Part shown: positions 15,981 to 55,188 of the stretch, piece by piece
How the letters are laid out: each line of letters opens with the position of its first letter
Numbering within the stretch: the first letter of the stretch is position 1
From: Psammoneis japonica
Lineage: Eukaryota
DNA: 64,000 bases
Assembly: GCA_008632985.1 (NCBI GenBank)
Contig: QPGO01000036.1
Coordinates: forward strand, 248,001-312,000
Reading direction: 5' to 3'
The notes under the pieces: model-generated
The model's database searches: none
What the model saw: the letters and a program-made list of their open reading frames with translations, nothing else
What the model was told of the DNA's origin: nothing
Program-made: the position numbers and the translations under genes

Positions 15981-16514
15981 GAAAGACATCATAGAATGTT
16001 GTGTTAGCGCTAGTTCCGTGTATCTGCGTGTTAAGTAGACACACGGATTGGATAAAGAAGCTTCATCAATTAGAACTTTTATATGTATCCCTTCGTCCCA
16101 GATCAGCTCAAGACGTCCTCAATGGGAGGATGGAGCTGGCCCATCCCTCCACAAACACCAAGTGACCCCACTTGGGCCAGACCACTCATGCGGAACGATC
16201 ACCAACCCACCACGCACAGAGACCACCGACACCACACTGAGCAGACAACAAAAACCTGGCAACATGCTGATGACGGCACCAGAATCAATTCGATGTCACG
16301 CGCACAGCCCAAGAAAACTGCACACAACAACCACCCCTTGTTCGTGTCGCTGCATTGACTGTGCAATGTCCACTTTCTCACAGTGCTGCAGGTTGAACGG
16401 AAAGACATCATAGAATGTTGTGTTGGTGCCAGTTCATTCCGTGCATGCATCTGCATGTTGTGCAGACACAAGGATTGGATGAAGAAGCTTCATCCATTGG
16501 AACTTTTGCACGCA
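15981..16514 (+). repeat. Direct duplication of about 110 bp: copy A 15981-16087 (unmutated) and copy B 16400-16514 (TpA-hypermutated)
   Basis: Both copies begin gaaagacatcatagaatgttgtgtt. 10 of 11 TpA in copy A are TpG or CpA in copy B. Confidence 0.9.
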
Positions 16515-17060
16515 GGGTCATCTTTGCTCCCCACAACCGTTGAAGACACTCGTTCAAGACACTCGTTCATCACAAACTTTTTCATTCCGCACATTGTTCT
16601 TTCTGTTTATTTTCACACACATGTTGCACTTGCCATGTGTTTTTCACACAATTTCCTCAAGTGGCAACCCCGTGCATCATTCCACGTCCTTTTCACGCAG
16701 GATTTCTGATCAAAAATTTTTCTCCCCAATTCGTTCCTGCGGGACTTCATCAATCTTGTCAACCGCCCCCCACAAGACTCAACATGCGTTGATCAGGACA
16801 TGATGAAAATGTCGTTTCATGACCGCAAATCTGTGACCACACAAATCCACGACCACACAAACCATGACGCAAGAACAAACTCATCACCCTTTCATTCCCT
16901 GCAACGCCACAAAGACATTGTCCCTCTCGCGACATGCGCGGTGCCACATCCAGAACCTTCTGCCCAATGCCAGAATGACGCACATGTTGTTTTTTGTCTG
17001 CATCCCAATGGATGTTGGTGCAGCCAATCCAGTGCCTTTTTTGGGTGTGTGCTCTTCTTC

Positions 17061-18056
17061 TCACAATGCTCTTTGTCGAATGCAAGGCACGCACCAAATC
17101 AGACCATGATGACATGCCCAGAATGATGCGCTGCTTTTTTTGTCACTGAACAATCTCACCCCATCATTGTTGTCCCTCTTTTTGGTTCTTGGAGATGAAG
17201 GATGGGATTCTTTTGTGTCGTGCACAATCACAATCGTGGATTCAACCAACGCCGCCCCAATGGGGGGCATGTTGCACCCTTTGGAGGTGGTCGTGGCCAT
17301 GTGATGGTGGTGTGGCAGGCTGAGTTGGCCGCATTTTTGGCGACATGGTTGATGCTGGTGCTGCTGTGGGAGGCCGAGTGGGCCCCATTGGTGGCAGGGG
17401 AGGATGTGCCGGTGCTGTTGGTGATGGTGGCAGTGGCGTCGGCATTGCAGCCGGCAGCCGGCACGGAGGTGCTTCCAGTCATGTGCAGCAGGTCGCAACG
17501 CCGATGCTGCTGATGGTGGTGGTGGAGGCCGTGGCGGGGCCATGGCTTTGGCTGTGGTGGCGGCCCTTGTGTTGGATGTGTTGCTGGACATTTGGATGAC
17601 ACTGGCGGTGTGGGAGGCCGGACCGGTGGTGTGGGAGGCCGAGCAGGCCGCGTTGGCAGTGACACGCTTGGTGCTGGCGGTGTGGGAGGCCGAGTGGGCC
17701 ACATTGGCGGTGTTGTGCTTGATGCTGGTGGTGTGGGAGGCCAGAATGGTGGTGTGGAAGGTCAAGCAGGCTGTGTTGGAGGTGACATGCTTGATGCTGG
17801 TGGTGTGGGAGGCTGAGCAGGTGGAGCTGGTGGCGACAGCGTTGGTGATGGCGGTCGTGGCATCAGCATTGCAACTGGCAGCCGTCACAGCGGCAGTCAT
17901 GCAGCAGGTTGCAACGCCGATGCTGCTGATGGTGGCAGTGGACACCATCATCGGAGCCGCACTTTGGCCGTGGTGGTGGCCCTCGTGCAGGACATCCCTG
18001 GCCCATGCATTCACGTTGCGTGAAAGTGCAGCGTGGTTTTGTGCTGTCCTCGACAA
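17061..18056 (-). pseudogene. Degenerate repetitive ORF relic with internal tandem repeats (SHTTS/SHTAS units)
   Basis: Repeated ggtggtgtgggaggc units at about 17300-17830. No Tyr. Identity unknown. Confidence 0.35.
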
Positions 18057-18405
18057 TCAACCAAGCCAGTCATTTGACAACTGACCTGACCCAACTGGCC
18101 AAAGCAGGCTTTGATGATTGTGTCTGGCAGTTGAACAGGGTCAAACAACCTGAGGTGGCTTTCACAAGACAACCAGCAAGAGGATGCATTTTTGGTCGAG
18201 AAAATTGCCACGTTGCGGAAAAGTGCGGTGCGGTTTGCACTGGAATTAACACAGAATTCCACAGGGACAGTGTTTTGAGCGCCATTGTTTGAACATGGAC
18301 ATTCATGCCAAATGAGGCACTCGACATGCCAGCGCTAATTTTGCGCAGCTTTTTTTCATGCGATGACACAAATGTGTGTGCAATCCTGGCTGCCGCGCTT
18401 TCCTG

Positions 18406-18567
18406 CGCAAGGTCTGACGAAGACAAAGACTTGAGTGATGACAAAGTTGTGAGAGAGAGACCAAGGCAACGAGGTTGCTTTCAGCAAAGCCCATCACAAT
18501 GGCTCCTCTTGTGTCCAATGGGATCATCAATGCTGTGTGTCAGAAAAACAGGGTGTGCGACACTGCA
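18406..18567 (-). repeat. 3' LTR of the Gypsy element (contains the empty piggyBac target site at 18527-18530)
   Basis: Aligns to 23475-23597 plus 24772-24808 (aagacaaagacttgagtgatgacaaagttgtgagagagagacc...cagaaaaa..gggtg.gcgacactgca). Confidence 0.9.
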
Positions 18568-18699
18568 CTCTTCCCTTCCATGATTCAAAATGTGAGAATC
18601 ATTCGGGACTCCAAAACTTTTTAAAAATTTCAACTCAAATTCCATGAGAGGAAACAAGGGAAACCCAAGTGTTGGGGAAAAAACCCTCAACCTCAAATT

Positions 18700-21600
18700 C
18701 GATGCGCGGGACGACGCGCCAAATGTTGAGTTGTTCCACCACATGAGGCACCCGTTGAACTGCAACAGTGCCATTGACGTGCACCTGAACAATGGGACAA
18801 GGGCCATGTGCCTGAGGTGCAAGCTTGGCAGGATCAACTGTCTTGACAAGTGCTTGATCGATGTTCTTGAAAAGCGGCGAGATCCACTGGAACTGGCAGG
18901 TCTAAAATCATGTCACGGTGGAACACCACAGCACCGGGTGAAACCTTGAGAGCCCAGGATGCCACACATTGCATGGCATGCATTGCCGTTGCCAAAGCAT
19001 TGTCCACTGGTTGATTGGCTTGTCCAACATTCTGTGGAGGATAAAGATGAAGCAAAGCATGCAAGACGTCACCAACAGTTTGATGCGCACGTTTGCATGC
19101 CGCATTGGCTTGTGGATTTCTGGATGGCAGCACATCTTCCACTCCAGCCTGTTGCAACAACAGTTGAAAATGTTCTCCAATAAATTCTCTGCCATTGTCA
19201 TGAATGCAGCGGTTGGGATGAAGACAACGAGACAACCAACAATTCTGAAATTGCTGGGAAATGTGTTCGGAGGTTTTGTTGTCCACACAGATGAGTTCCG
19301 TGACATTCGAAACTGCGCCAATGCAAGTCAAAGCGTTGAACTCAATCTCCTGGCCCTGAACATCAATCTTCCAGGGACCAATGAGGTCAACTGCAACTTC
19401 ATTCCATGGCAACAAAGATGCTTCGTGCTCAGGCAGTTCCCCATGTCTGGGACCCAAAGTTTTCAAACGTTGACAATCAGTGCAACAAAATTCTTTGCAG
19501 GTTCGACAAAGGACAGGATGACAAAAATGCATGCCAATGGTTGAATGCATGCGATGCATTCCTGCATGTCCCAATGTCCTGTGATGCCATTGAATCATGT
19601 CAGGCAATGAAGCAGCAGGGATGCAGATCTTCCAGTCTGTTGAAGGAGCATTGGGATGAGCTCGGTGACAAATCACAGGACATTGGCTCACACATTCAAT
19701 CACGAATCGTTCCGGATGTTGTTGTCACATGTCACTCAATTCCACATCAATGAATTGGTGCTCTTGAATTCGTTGCACAGTTGTTGGATTTTGCATTTCA
19801 TCAAGCGAAGGATGGTTCAAAAACGATTCACACAGTTCAGGATCATCAACAAAAGAGGAGCAGAATTGAGAGGGTTCTTCTCGACAGCAAGTGAAACACA
19901 ACACATGCTCTGGGTTGTCAAGTTCTTCTTCATGAGGTGGCATTGCAGTGTTGATTGCTTTGAAATCTGTCAGCTTGCCTTCATTTGGAGTGCACTTCCC
20001 TTCCGTTTGAGGATCCATGCATGTGGCAATTGCAAAAAGCAGTCTGCCAATGGGCTGTCCTTGCCGTCAACATGCTCAAAGGTTGGAGCAAAGTCTTCCA
20101 AGAAGAGCCTCCACCTGAGTGCTTGTTGAGAATTGAGCGCATGAAAGGTGAGATTTTTATGATCAGCAAAAACAGCACAATCAGCTCCCAATGACATGGA
20201 ACGGAATTCTTTGAAACACATGGCCACCGCGAGAAGTTCTTTCTTGATGGTTGAACAATTCTGCTGTGCTGAACTGAGCTTCCGCGACCAACATGCTGCT
20301 GGCTTTTGATCTTGCATGATTGCTGCACCCATTTGACAGTCGGAGGAATCGGTGCAAACATGGAAGGGCTTGTTGTGATTCGGGTGGACCCAAAGGGCAT
20401 CATCCATCATCAAAGTCTTCACATCTTTAAAGGCTTTCTGACACTGTGGAGTCCGCTCCAATTTGCTCTTGCCGGTCAACTTAGCAAGTGGAGCAAGTGC
20501 ATGAGAGTGACGGGGCCACACATTCTGACAGCAGGTTGCCGCACTGACAAAAGATTGTAGTTGTGTCACATTCTGAGGAGGTTGCATCCGCAATGCAGCA
20601 TCAACCTTTTTCTTCCAAGGTCGAACTCCTGCAGGTGTGAGCCAATGGCCCAGAAAATCTGTCTCTTGGATGCACCACTCACATTTGAGTGGATTGACTT
20701 TGAGATTGTTTTCTTCCAGCCTGGACAATGACTTGTCAAGTCAACGCATGTGAGCATCAAACGAATCATCAAATTGAGCAACATCATCAATGTGGGCCTC
20801 GACATTGAGTCCGTTTGCCACTTTTTCAATGACAGCCTGAGCAACATCTGGTGAGGTCTTAAATCCCATGGCCAGCCTGCAAAGCTGGAATTTTCCAAAT
20901 GGAGTGACAATTGCACAAAGGTCCTTGAAGTCATCGTCCAGCTCAATGTGACAGCAAAACATGGTGAGGTCCAACTTGGTCAAAAATTTGCACCCTGATC
21001 GTCGGTGTAAAACATCCTGAACAACCTTGTCCAACTCTCAAAAGTCAGATGCCCATCTTGCTCGTTCATCTTTCTTGGGAGTTGCAAAAGTTCCTGCTGC
21101 CCATTCCGTTGGTCCCACTGGTTCTAGCACACCAGTGTCGCAAAGATGTTGCAGTTCCTTCTTGAAAACTGCCTCGTCTTGTTTGGACACTTTGTGGGCT
21201 TTGGAATGAAAGGGAGTGGCGTTGGCATCAACTTCCAAATGTGCAGTTTTGTGTGGATGTTTGCCGAGAGTCCCATCAGAAAGAGTTTCATGATTCTCAA
21301 GTGCGACTTGAAGTTCATCGCGTTGCTCCTGCATCAAATGAGTTTGTGATTGTGCCACTTTTTCGGTCGACACTTTTTCATGCTTTGCATCCAACATGAA
21401 GGATTGACTTGACAATTCTTCATTGGTTTTGTCCTCCTTGTTGTCGTCCAACACATCCAACCAATTCTGCACTTGGATCCAATGATTGGATTGCTTCATC
21501 GGGATCGTGGTGTCCAACCATTTCATGGCTGCAAACCTGAAATCCAATGCCACACCAGCTTCAGCTGGGAAGTCTTGACCCAACATCACATCACACTTGC

Positions 21601-23240
21601 ACTGTGAATCAAACACTTGAGCCACAATTCCACTTTGTGATGACATGTCGAGAGGATTCATGTCATCCGGCCACCATCTGAAAGCTCAGTTGTCCCTCAT
21701 CATTCACAGTTGGATTGGCTCCCTTGGGCAAAACTCGAGAATGCACAAGTGTGTCAGCACCTCCTGAATCTGATGATGTGCGCAACACTCGCTTGCTCTC
21801 TTGATTTTGCATTGTGCGCGCTGCCATCAATGTTGTGGGCACCACACTCAATGGCTTGGGAGTCACAGTTTTTGGGGTTGGCGCAGCATGCTCCAAGGCG
21901 CTGCCCATTTCTTCTTCATTCACAGCACAGGATTCCATCAGGTCCCCCACACTTTCATCAACATTGAAACACATGCGTTCATCACAACCACACAAAACAT
22001 GAAAAGATTGAGCGAAACGCTCTGACTCGGGCACTTCCGTCCCTTGTCAATTGTGCCAGCTGCGTTGGCCTTGAGGAAAACAACCACCTTGGTCGCATCC
22101 ATTTCCACCTCGCGTCTCACGAGGCCCTCCTTGATCGAAATGGTGCAACTCCATTTGCCAGTCACCAGGAGGAGCTGTTCCAGCTAGATTTCCATGGCCT
22201 TGGGCATCACCGTTGGCTTGGGTGCCATTTTGATGTTGACAATGAGATCCTCCTCCTTGGGAATTTTGTGATCCTTGGCAGCTGCCATGTCCTCAGCCAC
22301 CACAATTGCCTTGACTGCCACAGCCACCACGTCCTTGACCTTGGAAGTTGCCACGACCTCCTCGGCCTTGCGAACCTCTGCCTTGGAAGTTTCCATGGCC
22401 TCCACCTCGACCTCCACGGTCTGTCCTTGGTCAACAGTTTTGGTTGTCTGGACTCAAAATGCAATCCTTCCATTTGTGGTCATGATTGGCATGTGCTGGG
22501 CACCCAGACTCTGGATCAGCTCAAGTGTTGTTCCCTCGACTTCACCCAGAAGCTTGAGAGGATGAAGCATTGCTCTTTTGCTTCTTGCTCTGCTTTTTGT
22601 TGCTGCTCTTGTCAGCAAAGGATTTCTCATTGTTCACGCAGCTGACAATCTCGGCAAGACTGTCGTCAGCTGTTGATCGTCCTGCTCGAGTGTGCATCTC
22701 ATGCCACGGACGAGGAAAGCTGTTGAAGATCATCTTCTTCTTCTGAGCGTCATTGGCTTGAGGAGCATTTCCTGGTGACTTGTTAGAACAGCAAACCAAG
22801 GCCTCCATGTGATCAGCATGTGCCTGCACTTCAGATTTGAACAGTTTCTTCAGGGTCAGCAAACATTCAATCACAGTGTCGCGCGCCTCATTGTCACAAT
22901 GAGACAGGTGAAAACCACTCATCTCTTGATCAATTGTCAGCATCAGCAGTGGTGTCAGTCAAATTTGCCCATTTGACCTCAGCAGCATTGGTTGGTGCTT
23001 CTTTGAAATTGTCAAACAATTCTTTGCCAGCAGCAAACTCCAATTTCACGGCAATCTTACGAAAATGATCCTCAACAAACAACGAAGCTTCAGCGCCATG
23101 GGTGCCATCAAAATGCGGACACTTTCGAGCACGCGCACTGCCATCATCATGCCACTGACTCAATTTCACGTCCTCCAAATCAGAATGCTCAAATTTTGCC
23201 TCACAGTTGACACAGGGTTCTTTTAACGAATCACCCATCA
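18700..23240 (-). pseudogene. Gypsy gag-pol, fragmented by stops and frameshifts
   Basis: Protease VLRTSSDSGG (LLDSG), RT TPFGKF...MG...EAHIDD (YIDD), RNase H VCTDSSDCQMGA...SRKLSSAQQNC...KELL...DHKNL, integrase PWNEVAVDLIGPW...IHDNG.EF...NPQANA. Confidence 0.92.
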
Positions 23241-23474
23241 TGCAATGTGGAGCACAATTGCGAAACAGTCCTCTCCAGGGACTCCACCTTTGACTCCAAA
23301 TGATGCACTTGGCTTGCCAAATTCTGTTCGTGTTGTCTGTGTTGTTGAACTTGTTTCTGGTGGTCAATCACCCAAGCTGCTGCTCTTGCTTGTAATTCTC
23401 TTTTCTCATGTTTGGTCAATCTGTTTGCATTGCCCCCAGTCTCCATCCAGCTCTTGAGTCGACTGCAATTGCAG

Positions 23475-24808
23475 TGCAAGGTCCAACAAGACAAAGACTT
23501 GAGTGATGACAAAGTTGTGAGAGAGAGACCAGGCAACAAGGTTGCTTTCAGTGAAGCCCGTTGCAACGGCTCCCATTGCATCCAATGGGATCATTGACCC
23601 TTCAACCACCAGGGGGGAGCAAATCTCCGCAGGTGGAGATTTGCTCTGCTTGAGGATGTGTGCCGTGTCATGCACTTTTGCAACAACACAATGAACACAG
23701 TAAAACATGTGATGTCATGTGCAATCTGCGTAAAGTGTGCCACGTGCATTTGCTTGTGTGTTGGGAGCAAATCTCCACCGGCGGAGATTTGCTCCCAGGG
23801 TGTGGCATTGTTGCTCCATTTGTGACAGCAACTCATGACAAACTTCATTGTTGAAAGTTGAGATTTAGTTCCTCTTCATTCACAGATGAAGCTTGCAAAA
23901 AACCCGGCGTTGAAAGTTGACATTGAACTTTCTAAATTGCAAAAAGTGTGCCTCCAGATTTTCGGCGAATGCGCGCTCCAGAACAAAATCGCGCGAACAA
24001 AATGTTGTGTCAACAGGAATCATTCGGGTCCTGAGAGTCATCCCGTAGAAATTTTGTGGGAGAGCACTAAAAACAATTGTTGTCAGTCTGTCCATCCGTC
24101 CACACACGAATGTCAACTTCTTGGGAAATCGATTGAAATGCCATCTGATTGACGGCACAGTGTTTTGACTCACACAGTGATGAAGGCCAGCGCCGTCAAT
24201 CAGATGCAGCAGCATTTCAGCTCAGTTCCCGAAAAGTTGTTGGCTCTGATCACTCTCTAGCATGACATCATTTGCACTTCTGCACGCAATGGGAACATTT
24301 CGAAAATGACCCGTGACGTAAAAAGCACAAAACAATTGTGGACGCCTGTGGAATCTACACGTTTTTGTGCTGAAGCTGTTGTGTTCACACAATTTGTGCA
24401 AAAACGGACTTGACTGTCATCGGGTCAGGTGCATTTTTGCAAATGCATTGAAGAAAAATGCACCTGATCAGAAAACAGTCAAGTCCATTTTTTGCAAAGT
24501 TAAAATTCACTGAGGACAGACAGACAGACTTTTCAACAATTGTCTTGGTGCTGTTCTGCACATTTCTGCGCAAATGACTCTACAGCGCAAAAGATTGCCG
24601 CTGTTTTGTGTTTTCCTTGTGTAAAATGTCAATTGTGACCCACGTGACATTTTCGAATGATTCCTGTTGCACCGGCACCGTGTGTCTGAAATTGCTTCAT
24701 TTGCCACATTTGTGGCGTGAGCGGGCAAATCTCCACCCGTGGTGATGGAGATTTGCTCAATGGTTGAAGGGCCAATGCCATCAGAAAAATGGGGTGCGCG
24801 ACACTGCA
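23475..24808 (-). repeat. 5' LTR of the Gypsy element, split by an insertion (23475-23597 and 24772-24808)
   Basis: Colinear with the 3' LTR on both sides of the 1174-bp insert. Confidence 0.88.
23598..24771. mobile_element. Non-autonomous piggyBac-like DNA transposon (MITE-like) nested in the 5' LTR
   Basis: TIRs cccttcaacca...tggttgaaggg. Subterminal palindromes gcaaatctcc...ggagatttgctc at about 23617, 23765 and 24725. Flanks ttga / ccaa and empty site tcaa all fit a mutated TTAA target. No transposase is visible. Confidence 0.8.
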
Positions 24809-25853
24809 TCCTACGACGGTGTGGAGAATGACCAGAAAATGACTGTGACCCAAAAATCGCACACTGTTGCACCAAAGTGCAGCGTGATGCGTGACGTGGA
24901 CCAGGGACATGGTGGTGGACATTTGGATGACGGCGATGGTTGTGACCCTGCCATGCACAATCCACAGTGCTGCATGTTTAGCACAAAAACTGTGGAAATG
25001 TCCACAGCCGGTCAAATGCCAAATTTCGGCATTTCCTGGAAAGCCGTGCTTGTCTCCCTTGAGCAGCGCAATTTTGGAGAAAAATGGCGGTTTGTCGAAT
25101 GCAACAACTGAGCCGAACCCGATGATTGGCTTTTGAAGGTTGAAATGTGCAGTTCACACACAGGTCCAACAGCCCTGATGGGGGGCTGGACACACTCACA
25201 AGAGTGCTTGGGGGTGCTCAGAGGCAACGCAAAACAACACAGGCGAAGTGCGAGAAAATTGCAAAATCACGAGCTAATTGAAACCAGGCCTGCGGGGAGC
25301 ATTGACCACTTGTCTTTCTTTGTGGGTGTGGGTGCATGTGTGCCGTTGCATGCTGCATTGCCTGCATGCACGCAGGGCCCTGCCGCCGGGGCCGGTGTTG
25401 TGGCGGCTGAGTGGCGTGGCCACCGCACCGGTGATGTGGATGACCGTCACATTTGATGTCTCATGCCATTTTTGGGGCTGCAGCGAGGTGCACGGACACT
25501 CTTTTTTTTCCAATTTATCGCCACAACAGTGCATCACACAAACTCACTTGTTGTTTGACATGTTTTCCCCAACATGACTTTTTCGTGTAGAATTCACGAC
25601 AAATTGTCTTTGTGTGCAACTGAGTGCATTTTTGAACATGCCACGCCGGCAATCCCAATTTTTCAGAACTTTCGAGCTCTCCTGAAAAACCGTGCCACGC
25701 ACCCATCATGGGGAATTTGTCGATTTTTTAGGATGTCCCCACAACCTCTCATGTCCTCAATGACAATTCCAAGAATCCGAAGAATTCATCTGCACTGAAC
25801 AACCCATGCCCTTTCAAAATCCGAGGGACACACTTTCAAATTCAGATGGACAA

Positions 25854-25935
25854 CCCAACTGCCCGACTGCCCAACTGCCCGACTGCCCCACTGCCCGACT
25901 GCCCAACTGCCCGACCCCCCGACTGCCCGACTGCC
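25854..25935 (+). repeat. 8-bp microsatellite (gcccgact/gcccaact)n
   Basis: About ten units that vary mainly by CG versus CA. Confidence 0.9.
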
Positions 25936-26044
25936 GGACCGACACGAAAAAGTCTGCAATCATCAACCACTGAGTGGTCAATGAAAATGCCTCATGGGCA
26001 CTTTCAATCGTGTGGAAAAATGACCCCGGGACACATTGAAATTT

Positions 26045-26220
26045 GCGTGCGTGGAATCACACTGGAACACTCGGCAATGGCAATGACCACATGGATTTGG
26101 TGTCTTTTGTACGTGCGTGAAGTCACACTGGGACATTTGGCACTGTCACATGCACTTGTAGATTTGGTGTCTTTTGCACTTGCGTGAAGTCACACTGGGA
26201 CATTGGGTGCTGTCACATGC
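26045..26220 (+). repeat. Degenerate tandem repeat, about 70-bp unit, 2.5 copies
   Basis: gcgtgaagtcacactgggacat...gatttggtgtcttttg repeated. Copies differ by gtac/gcac and ca/tg swaps. Confidence 0.75.
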
Positions 26221-43462: not shown

Positions 43463-46400
43463 TAACTGTTGATGCAGTTTCCTGGACCTCGGCAAAGTAG
43501 CTATCTGTACCGGTGTGGAACAGGGGTAGCAGAGCAAGAGAGGCCGAATTACTCTCCCTTTCGGTGCAGCATGGTGCAATGGTGCCGTAGCCAACGCAAG
43601 AACAACCCGTCTTGAGAGGAGGAGTCCACATACATTGCTGTGTTATTAGAATCGCATTTGATTAGTCTGACTGAAAAACATGAAGGTGCACGTTTTGTCT
43701 CAGCTGACAGGTTCTTCATGTGCAAGTGCTGCTTTGTTTTGTCTGCCAAGCAGGTGTGAGTGTGGTTTGATTTTCTGCCCAAGCAGGAACAGGGAAAGGG
43801 CACACCATGCATGCCTCTAAGATTTGCCTTGTGTTTGCTGGGCGTGCTGTGGACGGAGTCGTGATGATTTCCAGCGCTTCTTGGGCCACCATCTCAAGCA
43901 GCCTCTGGTGCTCTCTTGAAGTCATTTTTCTGAAGAACCAAGAGCCATGCAAACACGGAGTGAACAGAGTTTGATCATCATCATTTTGGCAAGAACACGC
44001 CATCTGCCATTGCTGTGTGCAAGTTGCAGGAGGAGACAGCTTCCGTTTGACACAAAAGCCAGAGCACTCGATCTGCTCCAAGTGCCGGTGGAGGAGCAGC
44101 TCCAGGAGCAGCAGTTGCACAACAGCCTCCTCTCCACCCTGCATGCACTGCTGGCTCAAGGGCCACCAGCAGGTGGAGGAAACCACCAACCTCTGATTGG
44201 AGTTGGAGGTGTGATGCTGCCATCCCCCCATCCCATGCAGCAGCCCCACAGCACAGGTGCTGCCAGCTCACCCAGCAGCCATCCATGCATGCCACAATTT
44301 CTGTGATGACAGGTTTTGCAGCCATTGTGTGAGAAGTCAGGCCCAGAAAAGTTTCCACCTCTTTTTGAAGTCTTGGGGGTGAAAGAGTTGGTGCCACTCC
44401 AACCCATCATGATTTTCAGACAGCGCTCATGTGGGGCTGTTGTGCTGCCAATGTGGTGTGCAGGATGCTGGAGCTGCGCAGCATGACCATTGGGTCACCC
44501 ACTGTTCTGTGGCAGTGGTGTGATCAGCCTGACCTTGGGACAGAATGGCTGTGGCTTGGTCAGCATTCTTGGCCCACCAGCACATGCCACTGCCCCCCAG
44601 TGGACAGGAGTGTTGCAGGGATGCATGGGGTTGCCCCTGAATGATGCAACAATGATGGTCACAAACCACAAACATTGCAAGCCAATCCAACAGTCTCATC
44701 CTGCTGGCAAGCAACACCTTGGTGGAAGTCAGGACACAAAACATTTTTGTTTGTGCCATTTGATGGTCAAGTCCGGCCAAGACAAGACCCAAGCACAGAC
44801 CTTTGGGGGGATTCAAGGGAGGAGCGTGAAAGCTGATGCTGTGACTCGGCCAAGTCCATGACAAGTGTCAGCTCTCCCACCCTTGGGCAAGTCAGAATTT
44901 AAAGCTGTTTTCTGTCTCAAGCTCCCACATGCAACAGCACATAGAATCTGTGTTGGTTCTGGCACACTGGACTTGCTTTCCAGCAAATGACCCAACAATC
45001 ACAGCAGCCATGCAGAGCCTGCATGACTTCTGGCAATGATCTTGCCATTGGGGACAGTCAGTGCATGCATGACACACATGATCACAGCTGCCGCTGTTGC
45101 CATCAACGGCGTCAACAACAACAATTGTTGTTTCGATTTGACAGTGTTCATTTTGCTGTCATTCTGAAAGTTTCCCCTGGTTTTCCCTGGAGATCTTCAG
45201 TGCCTTTGGCTTGCAGATGTTGGCTTGGTTGGTTGCATCAGGGTTTCCTTTAATTCTGGAGCAATTGGGAAAATTTCTGGCCCCATTTTGGCATGGATTG
45301 AGTGACTGGGGGCTGCAACTTCACCAGATGAGCCTTGCAATGCTCAACCAACATTCTCACAGTGTTCCCTGGGTTTCTCTCTGGAGACCTTCAATGCCCT
45401 CAGCCTGCAGTTGTTGGGTTGGTTGGTTGCATCAGGGTGTCCTTTCACTCTGGAGACAAGACTTTCATGAGCTGTTGCTCTGGCTTGGCAGAAGTGACTG
45501 GTGGCTGCAAATGCGCCAGACAAGCCTTGCAACACTCCCGTCACTCTTCTCAAAGTGTTCTCTGGAGAAGTTCAATGCCCTCAGCATGCAGTTGTTGGGT
45601 TGGTTGGTTGCATCGGGGTGTTCTTTCTCTGAGAAGTTTGGAGTTTTTCTGCTCTCATTCTGGCACAATGCATGACCAAAATCCATTTTGCTTGCCTGCC
45701 GTGATGTCTGTTTTTGAGTTTTTTGGTGACACTGCTTGCTGCATTGCTGGGTTTGCTCCAAAAGAAAAAAAAGGAGGCACCATTGTTTGTGGCAGTGACT
45801 CAATTCTTCCCAGCAGGACTGGGTGTCAACAAACTGTCACTGTGGAATTTGCACCAGGTGCCATGCAAGCTGTGATTTGTGCACAAGTGGGCTGCAGTCC
45901 AAGAAGGAATCTGGAACCTTGAAGAGGGGGGAGGAGGGGGGGGCTGGAGGCAGAGCACACAGTTAATTTGGACAAGCACCAGAGGTCATCATGAAGATTG
46001 AAGCAGCCCAGAGCGCCATTGTTGAGACTTGGGAGATGCCAGAACAAGCGCAGTTTCACAAGCCTCAGCTTTGTGGACCATGACGAGGGCAACATCATGG
46101 AGGGACAAACCCCCTCCTCTTCTGGACAGCTGTGCCCAAGTGGACCAAACAAGCAGTGTGCCAGCTTGCTGGGCATTTGTGTGTCCATGGAAGGGACAAC
46201 AGCCATGGCCACATTGACATGATGATGATGATGATGATGGAGGCTCCAGATGAGGCACACATGGCAGCTGCAAAAAAGACTCCCTGGGCATCAACCACAC
46301 ACAGTCTCCTGCCATGTTGGGAGCTCCTGGGAGGACCTTGAGACAGATGTGGAGGACCTCCTGATGGAGCCCAGCATGCACCAGCCAGCACTGCTTGCAG

Positions 46401-46627
46401 AGCCACAGCACCAACTGCAGGTGCTGCTCTGGCAAGAGAAGACAGAAGACAAAAGCAAAAACAGCTGCTGCTGGCTGCACAACACTGAGCAGTGCTCTCC
46501 AGACATGCAACACATGCTGGTGAGTGAAAATCACAAAGAGTGCTCAGCCCCTCTTGCCAGTGATGGCATGGTTGTGTCTCTTGCCCATCAATGTGCATGA
46601 GGGGTGGCACAGCTGCAACATGCTGTG

Positions 46628-47365
46628 CACCACATCTGCCTTTGTGGGCCATCTGCTTGCTCACTTTTGCCATGTTTGGCCTGCAAGCCACAAGCGCTCC
46701 CAGTTCTGTCTCTCCGCAGATGAAGCCACTGCAGCAGTGCAGAGCACCAGCCAAAAACCAGCCAGTCAAAAGTCAATCAAGCACAGAGAAGTCAAGTTTG
46801 CTTTGCAATGCTTGGATGAGACACAAGTCCACTGCAGATGCCATGATTTGTCATGTCCCTCAGATTTGTGCAGCTGGCATGGCAGCATGTGATGCACAGA
46901 CAATGTGATGTAGAAATTTCTTGAGCTCTCTGGCTTGATCACACCACATCCCAAAGAGATTAAAATCCTGTGCATGAGCAACAAAACATCTTGGTGGTGC
47001 ACCACATCTGCCTCTCTGTGGGCCATCTGCTTGCTCACTTTTGCCATGTTTGGCCCACAAGCCACAAGTGCTCCCAACTCTGACTCTCTGCAGCTGAAGC
47101 CACTGCAGCAGTGCAGAGCACCAGCCAAAACCCAGCCAGTCAAAAGTCAATTAAGCACAAAAAAGTCAAATTTGCTTTGAAATGCTTGGACAAGACACAA
47201 GTCCACTGCAGATGCCAAGATTCATCATGTGCCTCAGATTTGTGCAACTGGCATGGCAGCATGTGATGCACAGACAATGTGATGCAGAAATTTCTTGAGC
47301 TCTCTGGCTTGATCACACCACATCCCAAAGAGATTAAAGTCCTGCGCATGAGCAACAAAACATCT
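46628..47365 (+). repeat. Tandem duplication, about 372-bp unit x2
   Basis: caccacatctgcct...catgagcaacaaaacatcttg at about 46628 and 47000. Confidence 0.9.
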
Positions 47366-47599
47366 TGATGTTCTCAAGCAGCAGCACACCAAAACCCCAT
47401 TCACATGATCCTGAGTCAGTGCCTTGAAGACACACATTTCTTTCATGTGGCAATTTTGACAACAAAGGTGCAAAGCCAGTTTTTTCTAAATCCCCACACA
47501 GAAAGGTGTTTGAGTGATCAGCACAGCAGGTGTGCATGCTCACAAGGGTGCGGAGAGAGCAAGTGATGAGAAGCATCCTTTCTGGGTGTTCTTTTCCTG

Positions 47600-49150
47600 T
47601 TCAAACCAGTGGCCAGTGAAAACAAGAAAAAGCCACACTCCCAGAATCTTTTGTCAGATGCCCACCAAGGATGCTGCAAATTGACAATTCTTTCACATCT
47701 GAGTGTTGGTCCTCACACCACTTGTGCCAAAATTCAGCCACAGGAGGATTGCCAAATGACTGCCTTTGCAAAATCCAACATTTGCAGCAGTGAGAGATGA
47801 TGAGAAAGAACAAGCCATGGGTGCCAATTTTGTGGAGACTCACACTGGAGAGTGGGCCAGAGATCTGGAAGAGAGCTGCACGTGGGTGCACCAGCCAAGG
47901 AGGCAAAATTGTTTGTCTGGAGCCAACCAGAGATCATGTGCTGCAAGAGGTGGCACCTGCAGAGGAAATGATGAATGTTCCCCATGACAAAATTCCATCA
48001 ATCTAAGACTGCACAGACTGGCGTGTTCAAGCTTGTTGCCTTGGTTGTGTCAGGTGGGCTGGCGGGGCTTTCAGCTGACATTTCAGCCTCGTGCACTTAC
48101 AATGGCAGCCTCCCCAGAGAAAGAGCACAGCTTCTCTTCTGCAAACAAGCACTGGGTTGTGTGTGCACAAATGGCAGGACTCAGGTTGTTCAACCTGCAA
48201 TGACAGATCTTGAAGGTGTGCACAGAGGGCAGGTGAGCATGCATCTGACAGGCTGCTGCTCCTTTTTGAGGGAGGACAGCACCATGTCACATGCTTGGGA
48301 GGTTTGCAGCTGAACCACAGAATGCAGGGGGCATGTGCAGAGTGTGGGTGCTTGGGCTGCAACAAGCATGTCACCTCACATTCACTTTTCTGTTGTCGCA
48401 GTTTGCCTTGCACAAGCAGCTGCAACCACCAAGGAAGAGCTGCTGGGGGCAATGTTGAAAAAGCACATGCACAATCAAGTGACACCCCCATGCTGCTTTC
48501 TTCAGGACATTGGAAAAACCCAAGTTTGATTGCCAGCACACACTGCACAAGCTGGTTGCTGGCTCTGCTTCAGCTCTCTTGTGCACTCACCTGCATGTGA
48601 TCAGCACAGGTGCACATGCTCACAAGGGCAGTCGTGTGGTTGGTCAGATGGAGCTCCTGAAGGGAACAAGTGATGGGTGGCATCCTTCCAGGGTTTTTTC
48701 TTGTTCAAACCAGTGGCCAGCAAAAAAAAGAAAGAGACATGCTCCCAGAATCTGTTGTCAGATGTCCGCCAAGGAATGCTGCAAATTGAGAATTTTTTGT
48801 TCACATCTGAGTGTTGGTCCCCACACCACACATTCCAAAATGCAGTTGTGGATCAATTTCCAAATGGCCACCTTTGCAAAATCTGACAATTGTTGGTGCA
48901 CAGGGAGAAATGATGAGAAAGCCATGGACTCATTTTGTGGAGACTCTTGTTGGAGAGCAGGTCAGAGATCTGGAAGAAGAGAGCCATCTGTGGACTGTGG
49001 GTGCACCAGCCAAGGAGGCAAAATTGTTTGTCTGGAGCTGGTTAAAGATGATGTGCTGCAAGGTGCAGAGGAAATGATGAATGTGCCCCATGACAAAATT
49101 CCATGTTCTGAGACCATGCAGCCCAGTGTGCTTGCGGTTGTTGCCTTGGT
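47600..49150 (+). repeat. Dispersed direct repeat: about 47600-48050 versus 48700-49150
   Basis: tgttcaaaccagtggccag...cccagaatct.ttgtcagatg...caccagccaaggaggcaaaattgtttgtctggagc shared. Confidence 0.8.
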
Positions 49151-49800
49151 CACATCATGTGGGCTGATGGGACTTTCATCCAATGTTGTCTGGAAAACAC
49201 CATCGCTCTTGTTCAGAGCTCATCTGGGCTGGATCAGAATCCTGTGTTCTTAAGAAGTGCTGACCAATTGCATTAAAGGGCCTTTCACAATGTCAAAGAT
49301 GATGTGCTGCAAGGTGCAGAGGAAATGATGAATGTGCCCCATGACAAAATTCCATCAATCTAAGACCATGCAGCCCAGTGCACTTGCAGTTGTTGCCTTG
49401 GTTGCATCATGTGGGCTGTTGGGACTTTCATCCAATGTTGTCTGGAAAACACCATCACTCTTGTTCAGAACTCATCTGGGCTGGATCAGAATCCTGTGTC
49501 ATTTAGAAGTGCTGACCAATTGTGTTAAAGGGCCTTTCACAATGTCAAAGATGATGTGCTGCAAGGTGCAGAGGAAATGATGAATGTGCCCCATGACAAA
49601 ATTCTGTCAACCTAAGACCATGCAGCCCAGTGCACTTGCAGTTGTTGCCTTGGTTGTGTCATGTGGGCTGATGGGAGTTTCATCCAATGTTGTCTGGAAA
49701 ACACCATCACTCTTGTTCAGAACTCATCTGTGCTGGATCTGAACCCTGTGTTCTTTGCAAGTGCTGACCAATTGTGGTTAAAGGGCCTTTCACAATTGTC
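49044..49800 (+). repeat. Tandem repeat, about 252-bp unit x3
   Basis: aaagatgatgtgctgcaaggtgcagaggaaatgatgaatgtgccccatgacaaaattc at 49044, 49295 and 49547. Confidence 0.92.
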
Positions 49801-51199
49801 ATTGCATGCCAAGCAGGAAATGATGCTTGAGGCAAATTGGTCCCATGGTGCATGAAATCTTGACAAGTCCACATTGCAGCTGATTTTGAAATTGTCAGGT
49901 TTCTGTCCACAATTGATGTGATCTTCCAAGTGGGAAATGGCAATGAATGAAACTTGTGACTTGCAACTGTTCTTGCTGAACAACCGCGCATTTGCAACAA
50001 TTTTCTGACATTGCTCATTTCTGAGGACAATGGCGATGTTCATTTGTCTCATTGACATGCTCGCACATTGGCTGCGTGCTCTTCACAATCTAATTTTTGC
50101 ATGCCATGTTTTGTTTTTTCTGCACTTGATCTGCTTTTGCTTCCTGTTTCCTGCTCTTTTGTCCTTGTTTTTTTTGTGCCACATCCCACCAGTCATCCCA
50201 TTGTCATTTGCTGTCTCCACACAATGGTGCCCTGTTTTGGTCATGGCATCCTCTCCTTGCAATTGCTTCTGTTCTTCATGATGATTGTTTGTTCCATGTT
50301 GCAATCTCTCTTTCATTTGTCATGCTTCTTTGGCCAAAGCCTTGGCCTTGCCTGCAACAAGAGGAAGAGAAAACAGCATGTGACAGATCAGAGTTTTGTG
50401 TGTGTTTTGTTTCTAATTGGCTTGGTGCAAATGCTGTTTCTGCTCACATTTGTGCCATCCCCACAGGGTGTCTTCCCTCCCAGCTCAGCTTGCAAGTCAA
50501 GATGTCTGTGTGGAAAGATTTGCAAAAGTGCCAGTCATTTGCATTGCTTGCTGAAGCTCCATGCACCCACCACTCACTTTCTCTCTCACACATTGTGTCA
50601 AACATTGTCTTCCTTCCTCTCTGCTCTGCTGTCGCCTCCCCACACTGCTCTCATTGTCAGATGTTGGATGCACCCTGTGTTTTGCATTTTGTGTCTTTGC
50701 AAGGCAATGATCATTTGTGTTTTTGCAGCAATCATGTCAAGCCTGTCTGTCTTGTGATTCCCATCAGCATCTCTCTTCAAGTGACAAAATTTAAAATTCC
50801 ATGTTTGTGTTTGCTTTTGAAGGTTTGAATGATTTGAAACAACTTGAATGAATCATGGAGTCATCAACGTTTTGCTTCAATTTGACACTTTCAATTTGTG
50901 GTTCATTGTGTGTGTGTCTGCAGTTGGTCAACATCTCATGTTTTCATCACACTGATGTGTTCTTGCTAAGATGGAAATTTTCACAGTCATGCTTGCCCAC
51001 TCCATCTTCTTTCAATTGTTCTGGGACTTCAATCTTTCCAACCTGCTTGACACCCCCACAACCAACTGTTGCCATTTTCTTGTGTTGCAACCATGCTGCC
51101 AAAAATGAAGAGTGCTTGCAGATCTGCCCTCACCACAAGGCAAGAGGAGAAGCCCTTGGGGACATCAAAGCTCTGTTGCTTGAGCTGCTGCAGAAATGG

Positions 51200-53150
51200 G
51201 TGTCTGGAAGAGTGGTGGTTGGTTGGCGCAGGCAGGTGCATGGTGCATTTTGGCTGTTTCTCATGTCATGATGCCAGGATCTGGCTGGAAATCAAATCTG
51301 ACCAAGTGGTGAAACCCCAAAACAGCACCAACCAAGGGCACAGCTGCTCCCCAAGGGCACTTGGTGTGTTGGCTGGGTCCAGTGGGCGACTGGAAGAGTG
51401 GTGGTCAATTGGTGCAATGGGCGCGTGGTGCATCTTGGGCTCATGACACCAGGATCTGGCTGGAGTGAGAGATCAAATCTGACAAAGTGACAAAACCACA
51501 AAACAGCACCAACCAAGGGCACAGCTGCTCCCTGAGAAGGGCACTTGGTGTGTTGGCAGGGTCCAGTGGGTGACTGGAAGAGTGGTGGTTGACTGGCGCA
51601 AGGGGCACATGGTGCATCTTTGGCTCCCTCTCAGTGTCACCCACCAAGGCTCCCTTGTCTCTGCAGGTTGGGTGCTGCCCACACTGAAACAAGTCACGCC
51701 AGGATGACAAGGGGCTGTGTTGACACAAGACAAGGCTTCTTCCACTGTCCAACCATGGTTCTTGCAGTCTCCCCTGGGACCCAATGACGGAGTCTCCCTC
51801 AACCATCCCAAGACAACTGCGCACTTGCAGTGTTGCACCAGTGGCTCCCTTGTCTCTGCAGCTGTCTGCCCCAGGACCCAATGGAGTCTCCTGTGACTGG
51901 CTGTCCCAAGACAACTGTGCACTTGCAGTTTTGTGCCAGTGGCTCCCTTGTCTCTGCAGGTTGGGTGCCCACACCAAGGCATGCAGCACCAGGATGACAG
52001 GGGGCTGCATCAACACAAGACAAGGCTTTTGCTGCCAAACAATGGATGTTGTTGGTTCCCCTTGGACCCAACAGAGTCTCCAGGAAAATCCGAAGACAAT
52101 TGTGCACTTGCAGTGTTGCGCCAGTGACTCTGTTGTCTCTGCAAGTTGGGTGCCTCCCAGCACACTGAAACAAGTCATGCCAGGATGACAAGGGGTTGTG
52201 TTGACACAAGACAAGGCTTCCACTGTCCAACCATGGCTCTTGCACCAGTCTGCCCTGGGACCCAACAGAGTTTCCCATGACCATCCCAAGACAACTGTGC
52301 ACTTGCAGTGTTGCACCAGTGGCTCCCTTGTCTCTGTCACTGTCTGCCCCAGGACCCAACAAAGTCTCCTGTGACCATCCCAGGACAACTGTGCACTTGC
52401 AGTGTCACGCCAGTGGCCAGTGGCTCCCTTGTTGTCTCTGCAGGTTGGGTGCCCACACCAAGGCATGTCACACCAGGATGACAAGGGGCCACATCAACAC
52501 ACAAGACAAGGCTTTCACTGCCAAACAATGGCTGTTGTTGGTTCCCTGGGGACCCAACAGAGTCTTCAGGGCAGTCCCAAGACAGCTGTGCACCCGCAGT
52601 GTTGTGCCAGTGACTCCCTTGTCTCTGCAGGTTGGGTGCTGCCCACACTGAAACAAGTCATGCCAGGATGACAAGGGGCCATGTTGACACAAGACAAAGC
52701 TTCCACTGTCCAACCACGGCTCTTGCAATCCACCCTGGGACCCAATGGAGTCTCCCATGACCATTCCAAGACAACTGTGCACTTGCAGTGCTGCACCAGT
52801 GGTTCCCTTGTCTCTGCTGTTTGGGTGCCCACACTGACGCATGTCATGCCAGGATGACAAGGGGCTGAGTCGACACAAGACAAGGCTTCCACTGCCAAAC
52901 CATGGTTGTTGTTGGCTTTCCTGGGACCCAACAGACTTTCCCACATGAATCCCAAGACATCTGTGCACTTGCAGTGTTGTGCCAGTGGCTCCAATGTCTC
53001 CACAAGTGGAGTGGCTGGAAAAAACCAGTCACGTCAGGATGACAAGGGGCAGTGTCAGCACAAAACAAAACTTTCATTGACAAACCATGGTTGTTGCTGG
53101 CTCCCTTGGGACCCAACAGAGTCTCCCATGGTCATCCCAAGACAGCTGCA
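51200..53150 (+). repeat. Complex tandem array: about 180-bp unit x2, then about 190-bp unit x7 with about 100-bp sub-duplications
   Basis: caggatgacaagggg anchors at about 51700, 51990, 52181, 52474, 52664, 52850 and 53035. Confidence 0.88.
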
Positions 53151-55188
53151 GACTTGCCATGTTTCTTTTGTCATGCCCCAGACTGCACAGGTGGGAGCCT
53201 CATGGGCAGAATCTTGCAGGGGTTGGTCAGCTTGATGCAGCAAACAAGGTGCAAAGTTGTCTTGGGACAGCATTGGTGGGCTCCAGTGGGTTGCCAGGGA
53301 CATGCCAACAACAAAGGGCAATGCACAGTGGAGCAAAAAATGGGCTCTGGCCCCACACAACCAGCGTGCTTGTCTTTCATGCATTGCCAGTCACTGTCCT
53401 GGGCACTTGCAGCCCAAGACAGAAAAGCCTTGCACAAACCATGGGAGAGATGATGTTTTGTCATCAACACAACCAATTTTTCCTCCAGTGGATGAAGCTT
53501 TGTGGCAGTGTTGGTTTCACAAATGCACGGAGGTCACAAGAGTCAAGCTTCTTCCATCTTCTCCAAATCCAGCACATCAAAGCCATGCAAGCCATGTCAT
53601 CTTCTTCATGGATGCTGCGATTGTTGTTCTCATTTTGGGGAGGGAAGAGGATGAGCAAAAATGGTGTGTTGAGAGAACATCAAACCCAGCATGTTGTTGG
53701 GGCACAAACTGTCATCAGATGGGTCTTGAGCCAGAGAGCCAACACCAAGTTCCTCTGTCACCAGCACATGATGGGAATCAATGACATCATCATTCAGCAA
53801 CGAGTCCTCCCATTGCTCATTGGGAAGCATGTTTCCACAGATGGTTGATTGAAACTCTTCATTGCTGATGGGAGGAAATGACAAAAAGGTGTGATGAATT
53901 GCCATCAAGAAGGGGCAGGGACATTGATCCTTTGGTGCTTGAATCAAGGGAATGGTTGAGAGGCTCTGATGTGTCAAAAGAGCAGGATGCAGCGTTGTTG
54001 CTCAGGGAGTGGTCGGGGGAGAAAGGTGCATTGTTTGGACCAAAGCAGAAGAAAGAAGAACACTGGGGACACCTTTAAAAATGTTGGCGGAGAGCGCACT
54101 CCTCTTTGTTGTCAGACATCCGACCAGGACAGAGAGTGGATTGCGACAGGAGTGTGCCATTGTCATTGGCAGATGTTGGATTGGAGAACAGGTTGTGAAG
54201 GACAGATGTGACAGAAACAGAGCAAAACAAAGGGAGAGAGCTGACAAATGGAAGCAAAAGGGAGCAAATGGAGCTGTTCTCAATGAGGTGAACATGTGAA
54301 CAAAACAAGCCACACAGGTGACTTCAAACGAGCAAAAAATCTTTCAATTGTTCATGAGTTAAAAGCTGTGAAGGGACAAAATCATCATCCATGTAAATTG
54401 AACAGATGTGGAAACAATCAGCACAAACATGAAAATTTTGACAATTGATGAGTGCCACTCTGTCCAAGCATGGAAACATGTCACAGATGGTTGCAGCCCA
54501 GTGCACTTGCAATGTGGCATGTCTTTTGTTGGGCACTGAGTCATGTGTGCAGTTGACAGGACTCAAGCCCTTCAACCTGCAACAAGGGCAGAGCTTGAAA
54601 GTGTGCACAGAGGACAGGTGAAACACTTGACAGGCTGAGGCAGGACAGCCATGTCACATGCTTGGGAGGTTTGCAGATGAACCACAGAGTCCAGAGGGCA
54701 TGTGTGCAGAGTGTGGGTGCTTGGGAGTCATTCTTGTTGGGAGCATGTGCAAAAGTGACACCCCTGTGTTCTCTTCAGGACATCAGAGAAAACCCAAGTT
54801 TGATTGCCTGCATGCACTGCAACTGGTTGCTGGCTCTGCTTCAACTGTTGTGCACTCACCAAGCGCCATGGATCATGAAACACCACAGGGCCCCAAAGAG
54901 AAAAATGGAAAGCACGCTGTTCACTCATCACGTGTGTGGAGAAGGAACTGCATCACAAATTCACAAATGGCAAACGGGAAGCAAATTAAGACTGTAGCGA
55001 CTGTGCTCCGCTCAAGAATCAAGAGTGGAGTGACTTTCTGCGAATGCTTGGGTTAGCAACTGCCAGTGGATTCAACAATCGCTGCAGTCGGTGCGACGAA
55101 GAACTAGCGCTTGGATTCATTGCGGGCTAGATGACAGGCTGTTCTAATCCTTAGATAGATTTTACTAACTTCTCTACAATCAGCTTGA

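Follow-up and report, generated by a model that had tools for sequence, protein, structure and literature searches.

Two blocks nearly free of TpA in a 64-kb diatom window are consistent with a context-specific A:T>G:C mutator

What could remove nearly every TpA dinucleotide from two long blocks of a diatom genome? The question is raised by a 64,000-nucleotide stretch of Psammoneis japonica (GenBank assembly GCA_008632985.1, contig QPGO01000036.1, positions 248,001 to 312,000 of the forward strand; hereafter "the window", in whose own numbering all coordinates are given). An original prediction, made from the letters of this window, had proposed that TpA was converted to TpG or CpA by a hypermutation process targeted to repeats. 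Our analysis favors, at a probability of roughly 0.6, a reading in which a context-specific A:T>G:C mutator rewrote nearly every TpA in blocks of silenced junk DNA (a Ty3/gypsy relic, a broken copy of PRP3, satellites, and unrecognizable remains), by a process of the type seen in the alga Bigelowiella natans.

Block 1 occupies positions 16087-33403 (17,317 bp) and holds a gypsy remnant, a PRP3 pseudogene, and short tandem arrays, while block 2 spans 43664-54987 overall is nearly CpG-free, and consists largely of tandem arrays. In block 1 there are 86 TA steps, or 5.0 per kb (observed/expected ratio, o/e, 0.08), where about 725 would be expected at the flank rate; in block 2, whose dinucleotides were counted over 43819-54986 (11,168 bp), there are 26, or 2.3 per kb (o/e 0.04), against about 467 expected. 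The flanks contain 1,469 TA in 35,102 bp, or 41.8 per kb (o/e 0.62). The claim of two sharply bounded TpA-depleted domains within DNA where TpA is frequent is thus borne out by exact counts, and so are the TA-free stretches that had been placed at 16610-18246 and 50969-54075: the gaps between surviving TA steps are 16608-18247 (1,639 bp) and 50967-54076 (3,109 bp), with another at 31183-33404 (2,221 bp). At the flank TA density, a gap of 3,109 bp has a probability of about e^-130. TA o/e is at most 0.23 in all 56 in-block 500-bp windows, and 1-kb windows give values of 0.00-0.19 at 16-33 kb and 44-55 kb versus 0.39-1.08 wholly in the flanks.

The edges of both blocks are sharp, to within tens of bases. 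On the left of block 1, TA occurs at 16080, 16082, and 16086 and next only at 16411; on the left of block 2, the TA at 43663 is followed by just 43818 and then 44900; and on its right, the TA at 54394 is followed by those at 54987, 54995, and 55054. Together with the normal TpA content of the abutting genes, these edges agree with the predicted confinement of the loss to dead transposable-element (TE) and duplicated DNA. Block 1 is internally a mosaic of differing CG and TA depletion: CG o/e is 0.38-0.75 and TA o/e 0-0.12 over 16087-23586, 0.30-0.90 and 0.06-0.23 over 23587-31086, and 0.19-0.29 and 0-0.03 over 31087-33086. As a side observation, a run of 11 Cs (33556-33566), with a GC-rich stretch after it, lies in the 250 bp over which this block gives way to its right flank.

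The missing TA steps are accounted for by dinucleotide balance. The gain in TG and CA matches the loss of TA and CG: the four together amount to 243.9 per kb in the flanks, 243.1 in block 1, and 241.3 in block 2, as TG and CA rise from about 72-74 per kb each in the flanks to 101-104 per kb in block 1 (o/e 1.63 and 1.66) and 115-117 per kb in block 2. The remaining 12 dinucleotides shift by no more than about 14 per kb. The loss at A/T steps is confined to TpA, since AA (72.2 per kb in the flanks, 76.8 in block 1, 73.6 in block 2), TT, and AT are little changed, and GC content is 0.48 in the flanks versus 0.49-0.50 in the blocks. TpA is therefore lost with GC at 0.48-0.50 throughout, in keeping with the contrast that had been drawn with repeat-induced point mutation (RIP) and with CpG decay. 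Stop codons reflect the same change: counted on both strands of blocks 1 and 2, TAA plus TAG number 127 and 48 versus 845 and 502 for TGA. Because TAA and TAG are nearly gone, the blocks have an excess of open frames of at least 70 amino acids, 7.8-8.3 per kb versus 4.9-5.2 in the flanks.

CpG is also depleted. Its density falls from 56.9 per kb in the flanks to 32.6 in block 1 (o/e 0.54) and 6.8 in block 2 (76 CG in 11,168 bp; o/e 0.11). Ordinary CpG>TpG/CpA decay thus ran in both blocks as well, more slowly than the TpA loss, which is the greater of the two in 56 of 56 500-bp windows across a CG o/e range of 0.00-0.90. Block 1 loses 37 TA per kb versus 24 CG per kb (37-39 TA per kb are lost across the blocks) and retains, relative to flank density, 12% of its TA and 57% of its CG, which implies that TpA decayed about 4 times faster than presumably methylated CpG. 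We infer that the CpG decay reflects 5-methylcytosine (5mC), because diatom TEs are methylated, and from the decay that the blocks are heterochromatic and methylated. The available text of a paper on diatom DNA methyltransferases describes methylated TEs in the diatoms studied, and also a diatom enzyme, DNMT4, that is related to fungal RID and whose function is given as unknown. A small observation concerns the first ~440 bp of block 2 (43664-44100), which adjoin the 5' end of an E1 dehydrogenase gene and contain 10 CpG (o/e 0.30) and 1 TA; there, strong CpG decay stops farther from the gene than TpA loss.

The direction of change can be read from a natural control at the left edge of block 1. 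An unmutated 115-bp segment (15972-16086, + strand), which has 11 TA and ends exactly at that edge, recurs as a mutated direct repeat inside the block (16391-16510, + strand), where 1 of the 11 TA is kept. By eye, 10 of the 11 TA of the outside copy are converted inside, 5 to TG and 5 to CA. A script counting over 112 aligned positions scored 9 such conversions among 17 mismatches, the others being 4 CG>TG/CA changes and 4 transversions, with 0 other transitions. Comparing a TA survival of 1/11 with 4 differences outside pyrimidine-purine (YpR) steps in 112 bp gives a relative rate on the order of 100-fold, a rough figure given the very small counts and the fact that those 4 differences are shared by two lineages. 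Past the repeat, both copies run into unrelated DNA, and the left edge of block 1 is therefore a rearrangement junction. Since the inside copy alone was mutated, homology of this length does not attract the mutator.

Coding remnants provide a second line of evidence. In the frame of a gypsy reverse transcriptase (RT)-RNase H remnant in block 1, none of 8 conserved tyrosine (Tyr) columns keeps Tyr, the replacements being 5 cysteine (Cys), 2 histidine (His), and 1 Trp, whereas each of ten unmutated metagenomic relatives keeps 7-8 of the 8. We classified codon changes at columns that are conserved across 113 homologues whose Tyr content is normal, calling a change TpA-type if it could arise from one TpA>TpG/CpA step. 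The 51 mismatches in 160 columns comprise 16 TpA-type changes, 9 CpG-type changes (among them Arg>Cys/His/Gln), 7 other transitions, 9 transversions, and 10 multiple changes; the identical test on the ten unmutated relatives gave 10 TpA-type and 7 CpG-type changes among 222 mismatches in total. Transversions are not in excess (9 versus 6-17 in the control relatives). The frame also shows Val>Ala (GCA), Leu>Ser (TCA), and ATG preceded by T changed to GTG. The PRP3 copy shows 53 mismatches in 260 conserved columns, of which 8 are TpA-type and 8 CpG-type, and Tyr in 0 of 4 conserved columns (3 Cys, 1 Val). Across the 115-bp pair and the excess of the gypsy frame over its controls, the changes are nearly all TpA-type transitions (A>G or T>C), accompanied by CpG-type ones. 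The repeat pair, the gypsy codon test, the dinucleotide balance, and PRP3 agree, and they confirm the predicted polarity, TA to TG or CA, that is, A:T>G:C at TpA on either strand.

The 112 TA steps that survive in the blocks are not a random sample of contexts. Taking survival relative to the flanks, which assumes flank-like ancestral frequencies, TTAA survives best at 0.64 (27 in blocks, 52 in flanks), followed by CTAA/TTAG at 0.31 (30 and 121), CTAG at 0.14 (9 and 77), and GTAC at 0.03 (3 and 125). Survival is 0 for ATAT (0 in blocks, 100 in flanks) and for ATAC/GTAT (0 and 221). These values show that the mutator prefers R-TA-Y (R, purine; Y, pyrimidine) and largely spares Y-TA-R, TTAA above all. 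We also tried to assign the targeted A by tetranucleotide mass balance and rejected this approach as too noisy: palindromic GTAC came out at 1.03 where 0.5 is required.

If the changes arose in resident DNA, copies of one sequence should have been resolved independently, and in-block paralogs fit this picture. Among 12 paralog pairs (3,509 aligned columns, 473 mismatch positions; a self-overlapping pair, 52352-52978/52550-53163, with 0 mismatches was left out), we find 60 adjacent doubles in which TG in one copy faces CA in the other. These doubles make up 120 of the 473 mismatch positions (25%), as against 568 of 22,406 positions (2.5%) in 55 control pairs of unmutated related loci. Such doubles are expected if two copies each resolved the same ancestral YpR step on their own. 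Since they occur in tandem units and in a candidate pair of long terminal repeats (LTRs), the changes postdate the copying and took place in DNA. Counts of TG and CA are near equal (1,808 and 1,750 in block 1; 1,308 and 1,285 in block 2), and Cys and His outcomes are mixed within the single gypsy open reading frame (ORF). The mutator, as read from these patterns, is thereby shown to have acted on both strands about equally and after the tandem copies had formed, and probably after the LTRs had formed. A runs test, applied to the sequence in which TG and CA follow one another, found no clear strand tracts (z of -2.53 in block 1 and -0.21 in block 2; -1.12, 0.13, and -0.85 in the flanks), although pre-existing TG and CA dilute its power.

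We then asked whether the footprint is present elsewhere. Among the best 120 homologues listed for the gypsy RT-RNase H frame, 7 public proteins from four source collections are Tyr-poor (P0024, P0028, P0031, P0048, P0081, P0089, and P0105), with at most 0.7% Tyr and 7.5-10.9% Cys plus His versus medians of 4.0% and 5.1%. At the conserved Tyr columns these proteins have Cys or His, the combination varying from one protein to the next. When compared with near relatives of normal Tyr content, Tyr>Cys, Tyr>His, and Ile>Val are among the commonest changes in 4 of 4 comparisons; some of the four also have Ile>Thr, Ile>Met, Val>Ala, and Asn>Asp among theirs. The same footprint is therefore present in other records, an independent hint that the bases in the window are real. 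Named relatives of the gypsy frame are all diatoms among the matches listed. TpA-poor sequence is absent from the metagenomic relatives of the gypsy frame: none of 77 loci shows it, nor does any of the 1,084 1-kb windows that they contain, and these loci served here as unmutated controls.

The original prediction knew of no described pathway that erases TpA. This is now outdated, as such a process has been observed de novo in B. natans, where mutation-accumulation lines carried 231 of 302 nuclear mutations in integrated giant-virus and virophage regions (Mettrop et al., bioRxiv 10.64898/2026.01.13.699255). According to the available text of that preprint, whose mutation calls come from Illumina NovaSeq reads, A>G or T>C changes made up 230 of the 231 regional mutations, every one of them at TpA, and they accrued at a rate of about 6e-7 per site and generation; 124 TpA-poor, CpA+TpG-rich clusters lie in the genome, and TpA-poor coding sequences are enriched in RT and DDE domains (bioRxiv 10.64898/2026.01.13.699255). 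Our window resembles that system in having A:T>G:C changes only at TpA, on both strands, and in confined regions, with a footprint in which TpA is scarce and CpA+TpG abundant. All 1-kb windows wholly in the blocks have a Rho TpA of at most 0.43, the B. natans cut-off, and most have a Rho CpA+TpG of at least 1.52; unbroken series of windows pass both values, in block 1 from 17001 to 27000 and in block 2 from 44001 to 55000, while a few block 1 windows (27001-28000, 30001-31000) pass on TpA and lie below 1.52 on TG/CA. We infer that the window is a saturated case, in a diatom, of the kind of process seen de novo in B. natans.

There are also differences. B. natans is a chlorarachniophyte (Rhizaria) and the host here is a diatom (Stramenopila); what was hit is a gypsy relic, the pseudogene of a host gene, and satellite DNA rather than viral inserts, with no viral gene found; erasure is near saturation, at o/e 0.04-0.08, compared with 0.45 for the nucleocytoplasmic large DNA virus region of B. 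natans as reported in the preprint; and the process is known here from the standing footprint alone, whereas there it was seen de novo in culture. CpG decay accompanies the TpA loss, and an extended R-TA-Y preference is apparent; the available text on B. natans mentions neither CpG nor diatoms (bioRxiv 10.64898/2026.01.13.699255). New here are thus the saturation, the accompanying CpG decay, the R-TA-Y preference with TTAA spared, and the TE and pseudogene targets. We found no description of a TpA-erasing signature in diatoms in openly licensed PubMed Central papers and bioRxiv.

Other known systems share individual features. Like ascomycete RIP, the process produces dense transitions confined to junk or duplicated DNA, with sharp edges beside genes, and kills TEs irreversibly. 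RIP, however, is C:G>T:A mostly at CpA, which creates TpA and lowers GC, whereas here TpA is destroyed and GC is unchanged. RIP also mutates both copies of a duplicate, while in the 115-bp pair the inside copy alone was hit; this is a weak test, as the pair is short and known RIP length thresholds exceed 115 bp. Deamination of 5mC shares the CpG>TpG/CpA changes in the same blocks, yet CpG decay cannot remove TpA and fails to explain either the loss of 37-39 TA per kb or Tyr>Cys/His. ADAR and APOBEC3 in animals offer a precedent for deaminase-type hypermutation against selfish elements, but they act on RNA or single-stranded cDNA before integration, in strand-asymmetric tracts, and here both strands of resident DNA are affected; ADAR is noted to prefer a 5' U (bioRxiv 10.64898/2026.01.13.699255).

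As to chemistry, we tentatively favor, at slightly under even odds, an enzymatic route in which a deaminase of the TadA/ADAT type converts adenine in DNA to hypoxanthine. The natural and ancestral target of this family, A34 of tRNA, follows the invariant U33, which makes it a "TA" step. TadA, ADAT2-ADAT3, and the TadA-derived adenine base editors likewise convert A to I, which is read as G, although activity on diatom chromatin DNA would be pure inference. The B. natans authors argue along these lines; they favor A deamination and propose an ADAT2-like protein as the editor, citing ADAT2 action on DNA (bioRxiv 10.64898/2026.01.13.699255). In such a scheme, silent blocks would be marked by heterochromatin or small RNAs and the deaminase recruited there; adenine at TpA on either strand would become hypoxanthine and give TpG or CpA. 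The genes abutting the blocks were spared. The outcome is irreversible inactivation: Tyr codons turn into Cys or His codons, ATA, GTA, TTA, and CTA codons are altered, ATG after T becomes GTG, TAG and TAA stops are lost, and, by extension, TATA boxes and AATAAA signals would be destroyed.

Do sequencing reads carry these bases? Public run X1 contains 78% of sampled words of 46001-56000, and at a depth of about 57, contigs assembled from its 31-letter words reach every one of the 30 bins between 42001 and 57000 and run across the two edges of block 2 (42001-45189 and 54215-57000). Among the 33 differences listed between the assembly and X1 inside block 2 (there are at least 33), 8 are CpG-type, 3 TpA-type, and 22 other, and 2 restore TA. 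Run X2 covers flank genes only, with nothing inside block 2, and was not used as evidence. Just outside block 2, at 43516-43646, an X1 contig and the assembly differ by a cluster of small indels, which could be allelic variation or an assembly error.

Several points weigh against the favored reading. X1 is one sample from one study, with its platform unrecorded, and may be the assembly's own data; its contigs carry the same bases at a depth of about 57 and support them, yet not as independent evidence. That 22 of the 33 listed differences are not of YpR type gives no sign of ongoing activity. Many block 2 bins are at a single-copy word depth of about 55-60 in X1, like the flanks, which together with the mutation of the inside copy alone in the 115-bp pair gives no support to the repeat-targeted or homology-directed action originally claimed. 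Of the 473 mismatch positions between in-block paralogs, most fall outside the YpR type, with 138 transversions and 156 other transitions, and the absence of TpA-poor loci among the 77 metagenomic relatives implies that gypsy elements of the diatom type do not undergo the process as a rule. The evidence base is two blocks in one 64-kb window, which bears on any claim of a process that is genome-wide, tied to repeats or methylation, and active; and because block 1 meets its left flank at a structural junction, the block may, as far as this edge goes, have arrived already mutated. Finally, TpA is self-complementary, and sequence cannot separate A deamination from a thymine-directed route.

This last point sustains the alternative that fares best, which we nevertheless consider improbable, namely that T in TpA is oxidized or otherwise modified by a TET/JBP-type enzyme to 5-hydroxymethyluracil (5hmU) or 5-formyluracil and then mispairs with G or is misrepaired, giving T>C. 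All of our counts fit T>C equally well, and thymine-modifying enzymes and 5hmU occur in other protists of the stramenopile-alveolate-rhizarian (SAR) group. 5hmU:A pairs are only weakly mutagenic, however, so conversion of nearly 100% would call for a pathway of its own. In the available text of their preprint, the B. natans authors come down on the side of A deamination (bioRxiv 10.64898/2026.01.13.699255).

The coupling of CpG and TpA loss could instead suggest error-prone patch repair at WA motifs (W, A or T) by a Pol-eta-like polymerase, triggered by T:G mismatches from 5mC deamination. Pol eta prefers TA, and the two losses do co-occur, with CG o/e and TA o/e correlating across the 56 500-bp windows (Spearman 0.48, p 2e-4). 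We find this explanation very doubtful all the same. AA density, at 72.2, 76.8, and 73.6 per kb, is unchanged; the excess changes in coding remnants are transitions at TpA or CpG, with no transversion excess; and TpA loss outruns CpG loss throughout, such that windows with CG o/e of 0.84-0.90 nonetheless show TA o/e of 0.16-0.23. In B. natans, 230 of 231 reported events are pure A>G or T>C at TpA (bioRxiv 10.64898/2026.01.13.699255).

Hardly credible, too, is the idea that retroelement RNA or cDNA was deaminated before integration in an ADAR- or APOBEC-like manner and that the blocks are stacks of pre-edited insertions. A retroelement is present in block 1, and the edges are sharp within tens of bp, one being a structural junction, as this idea would have it. 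Against it, both strands are affected within one ORF (5 Cys, 2 His), and TG and CA occur in near-equal numbers; tandem units disagree with one another at matching sites, TG against CA, as do the members of the candidate LTR pair; the copy of neighboring unique DNA at 16391-16510, as well as unannotated DNA, is equally affected; and the B. natans mutations arose in integrated DNA during culture (bioRxiv 10.64898/2026.01.13.699255). The least credible account, in which modified bases caused errors of base calling or assembly and no mutation took place, draws on the sole read set being from the same sample with an unrecorded platform, but X1 contigs reproduce block 2 and both its edges at a depth of about 57, just 2 of the 33 listed differences restore TA, Tyr-free homologues stand in records of four source collections, and for B. 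natans the calls were made on Illumina NovaSeq reads (bioRxiv 10.64898/2026.01.13.699255).

If a context-specific A:T>G:C mutator is indeed the cause, its reach matters. TpA-specific A:T>G:C hypermutation has been reported once before, in one rhizarian alga, in a 2026 preprint whose available text identifies no enzyme; a saturated footprint in a diatom suggests that the process is spread more widely across SAR lineages and shows that, beyond viral inserts, it reaches retrotransposons and copies of host genes. An unlikely but far-reaching extension is that diatoms and chlorarachniophytes might share a conserved DNA adenine deaminase, guided by chromatin or small RNAs and specific for R-TA-Y, that permanently disarms transposons, viral insertions, and stray gene copies. 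If true, this would be a natural "adenine base editor" and a SAR-wide counterpart of RIP with the opposite polarity, in which erasing TpA removes Tyr codons, TATA boxes, and poly(A) signals. The extended motif, with R-TA-Y erased and TTAA spared, sets a requirement for any candidate enzyme, and diatoms are a group with genetic tools for seeking it. For annotation, blocks without TAA and TAG may yield spurious Cys/His-rich, Tyr-free "genes".

The contents of the blocks are as follows. In block 1, a Ty3/gypsy integrase remnant lies on the - strand at 18837-19724 (Integrase_H2C2, E 3e-4; rve, E 1.8e-3; both below curated cut-offs), next to the RT and RNase H remnant at 19973-21037, also on the - strand (RT_RNaseH_2, E 1.2e-23; RVT_1, E 5.9e-6), which comprises an RNase H ORF (19973-20740) and an RT piece (20744-21037). 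These gag-pol remnants are flanked by two candidate LTR remnants 5,069 bp apart, at 18407-18535 and 23476-23600. The pair has 13 mismatch positions over 119 aligned positions, 8 of them in 4 TG/CA doubles and 3 at CpG; as just ~130 bp align, its identity as an LTR pair is not proven. The pseudogene of PRP3, a U4/U6 small nuclear ribonucleoprotein component, lies at 28484-29973 on the - strand (PRP3, E 1.5e-21 and 6.1e-15; Prp3_C, E 1.3e-16); a TGA interrupts its frame at 29197-29199, the frame shifts near 28741-28822, and the best homologue is 58% identical. Between these elements, 26486-27925 (+ strand) holds two adjacent coding-like frames of 241 and 226 amino acids with a lysine/glutamate-rich, coiled-coil-like stretch. 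Mutation is lightest in this part of block 1 (CG o/e 0.72-0.90, TA o/e 0.16-0.23). The two frames have no Pfam match, and a search of the ORF at 27248-27925 against 1.84 billion representatives gave 2 weak, uninformative matches (E 2e-7 and 1.3e-4).

None of the 93 ORFs of block 2 reaches a Pfam cut-off; three matches, to CFEM, vMSA, and RINGv, were discarded as all lie below curated cut-offs. Family profiles found no viral families among the 231 ORFs of the two blocks. Block 2 contains a ~186-bp unit array (51197-53185), whose copies differ by TG versus CA at matching sites, a 252-bp tandem repeat in 3 copies (49041-49862; 5 TG/CA doubles among 31 mismatch positions), and a ~190-bp unit in 3 copies (45160-45665). 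The word depth of about 950-1,590 at 45001-46000 in run X1, versus about 57 in the flanks, marks this last unit as a high-copy family. A few fragments of its other copies, recovered from X1, are likewise nearly TA-free.

The flanking genes are ordinary. To the left of block 1 lies a HAD hydrolase (14127-15440, - strand) and to its right an MFS transporter (34041-35531, + strand). Block 2 is bounded by a 2-oxoacid dehydrogenase E1-like gene (41063-43642, - strand), whose 5' end adjoins it, and by an ADP-ribosylglycohydrolase (55263-56408, - strand), 276 bp from its right edge, both with normal TpA. Other long open frames in the flanks encode RPN2, epimerase, TPR, methyltransferase, and HA-domain proteins. 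These genes assign the window to a diatom, not to Bigelowiella, and to one that lacks a close named relative in the protein database: for the RPN2 frame, all organism names listed among the best 120 of 5,107 matches are diatoms, at 71-79% identity.

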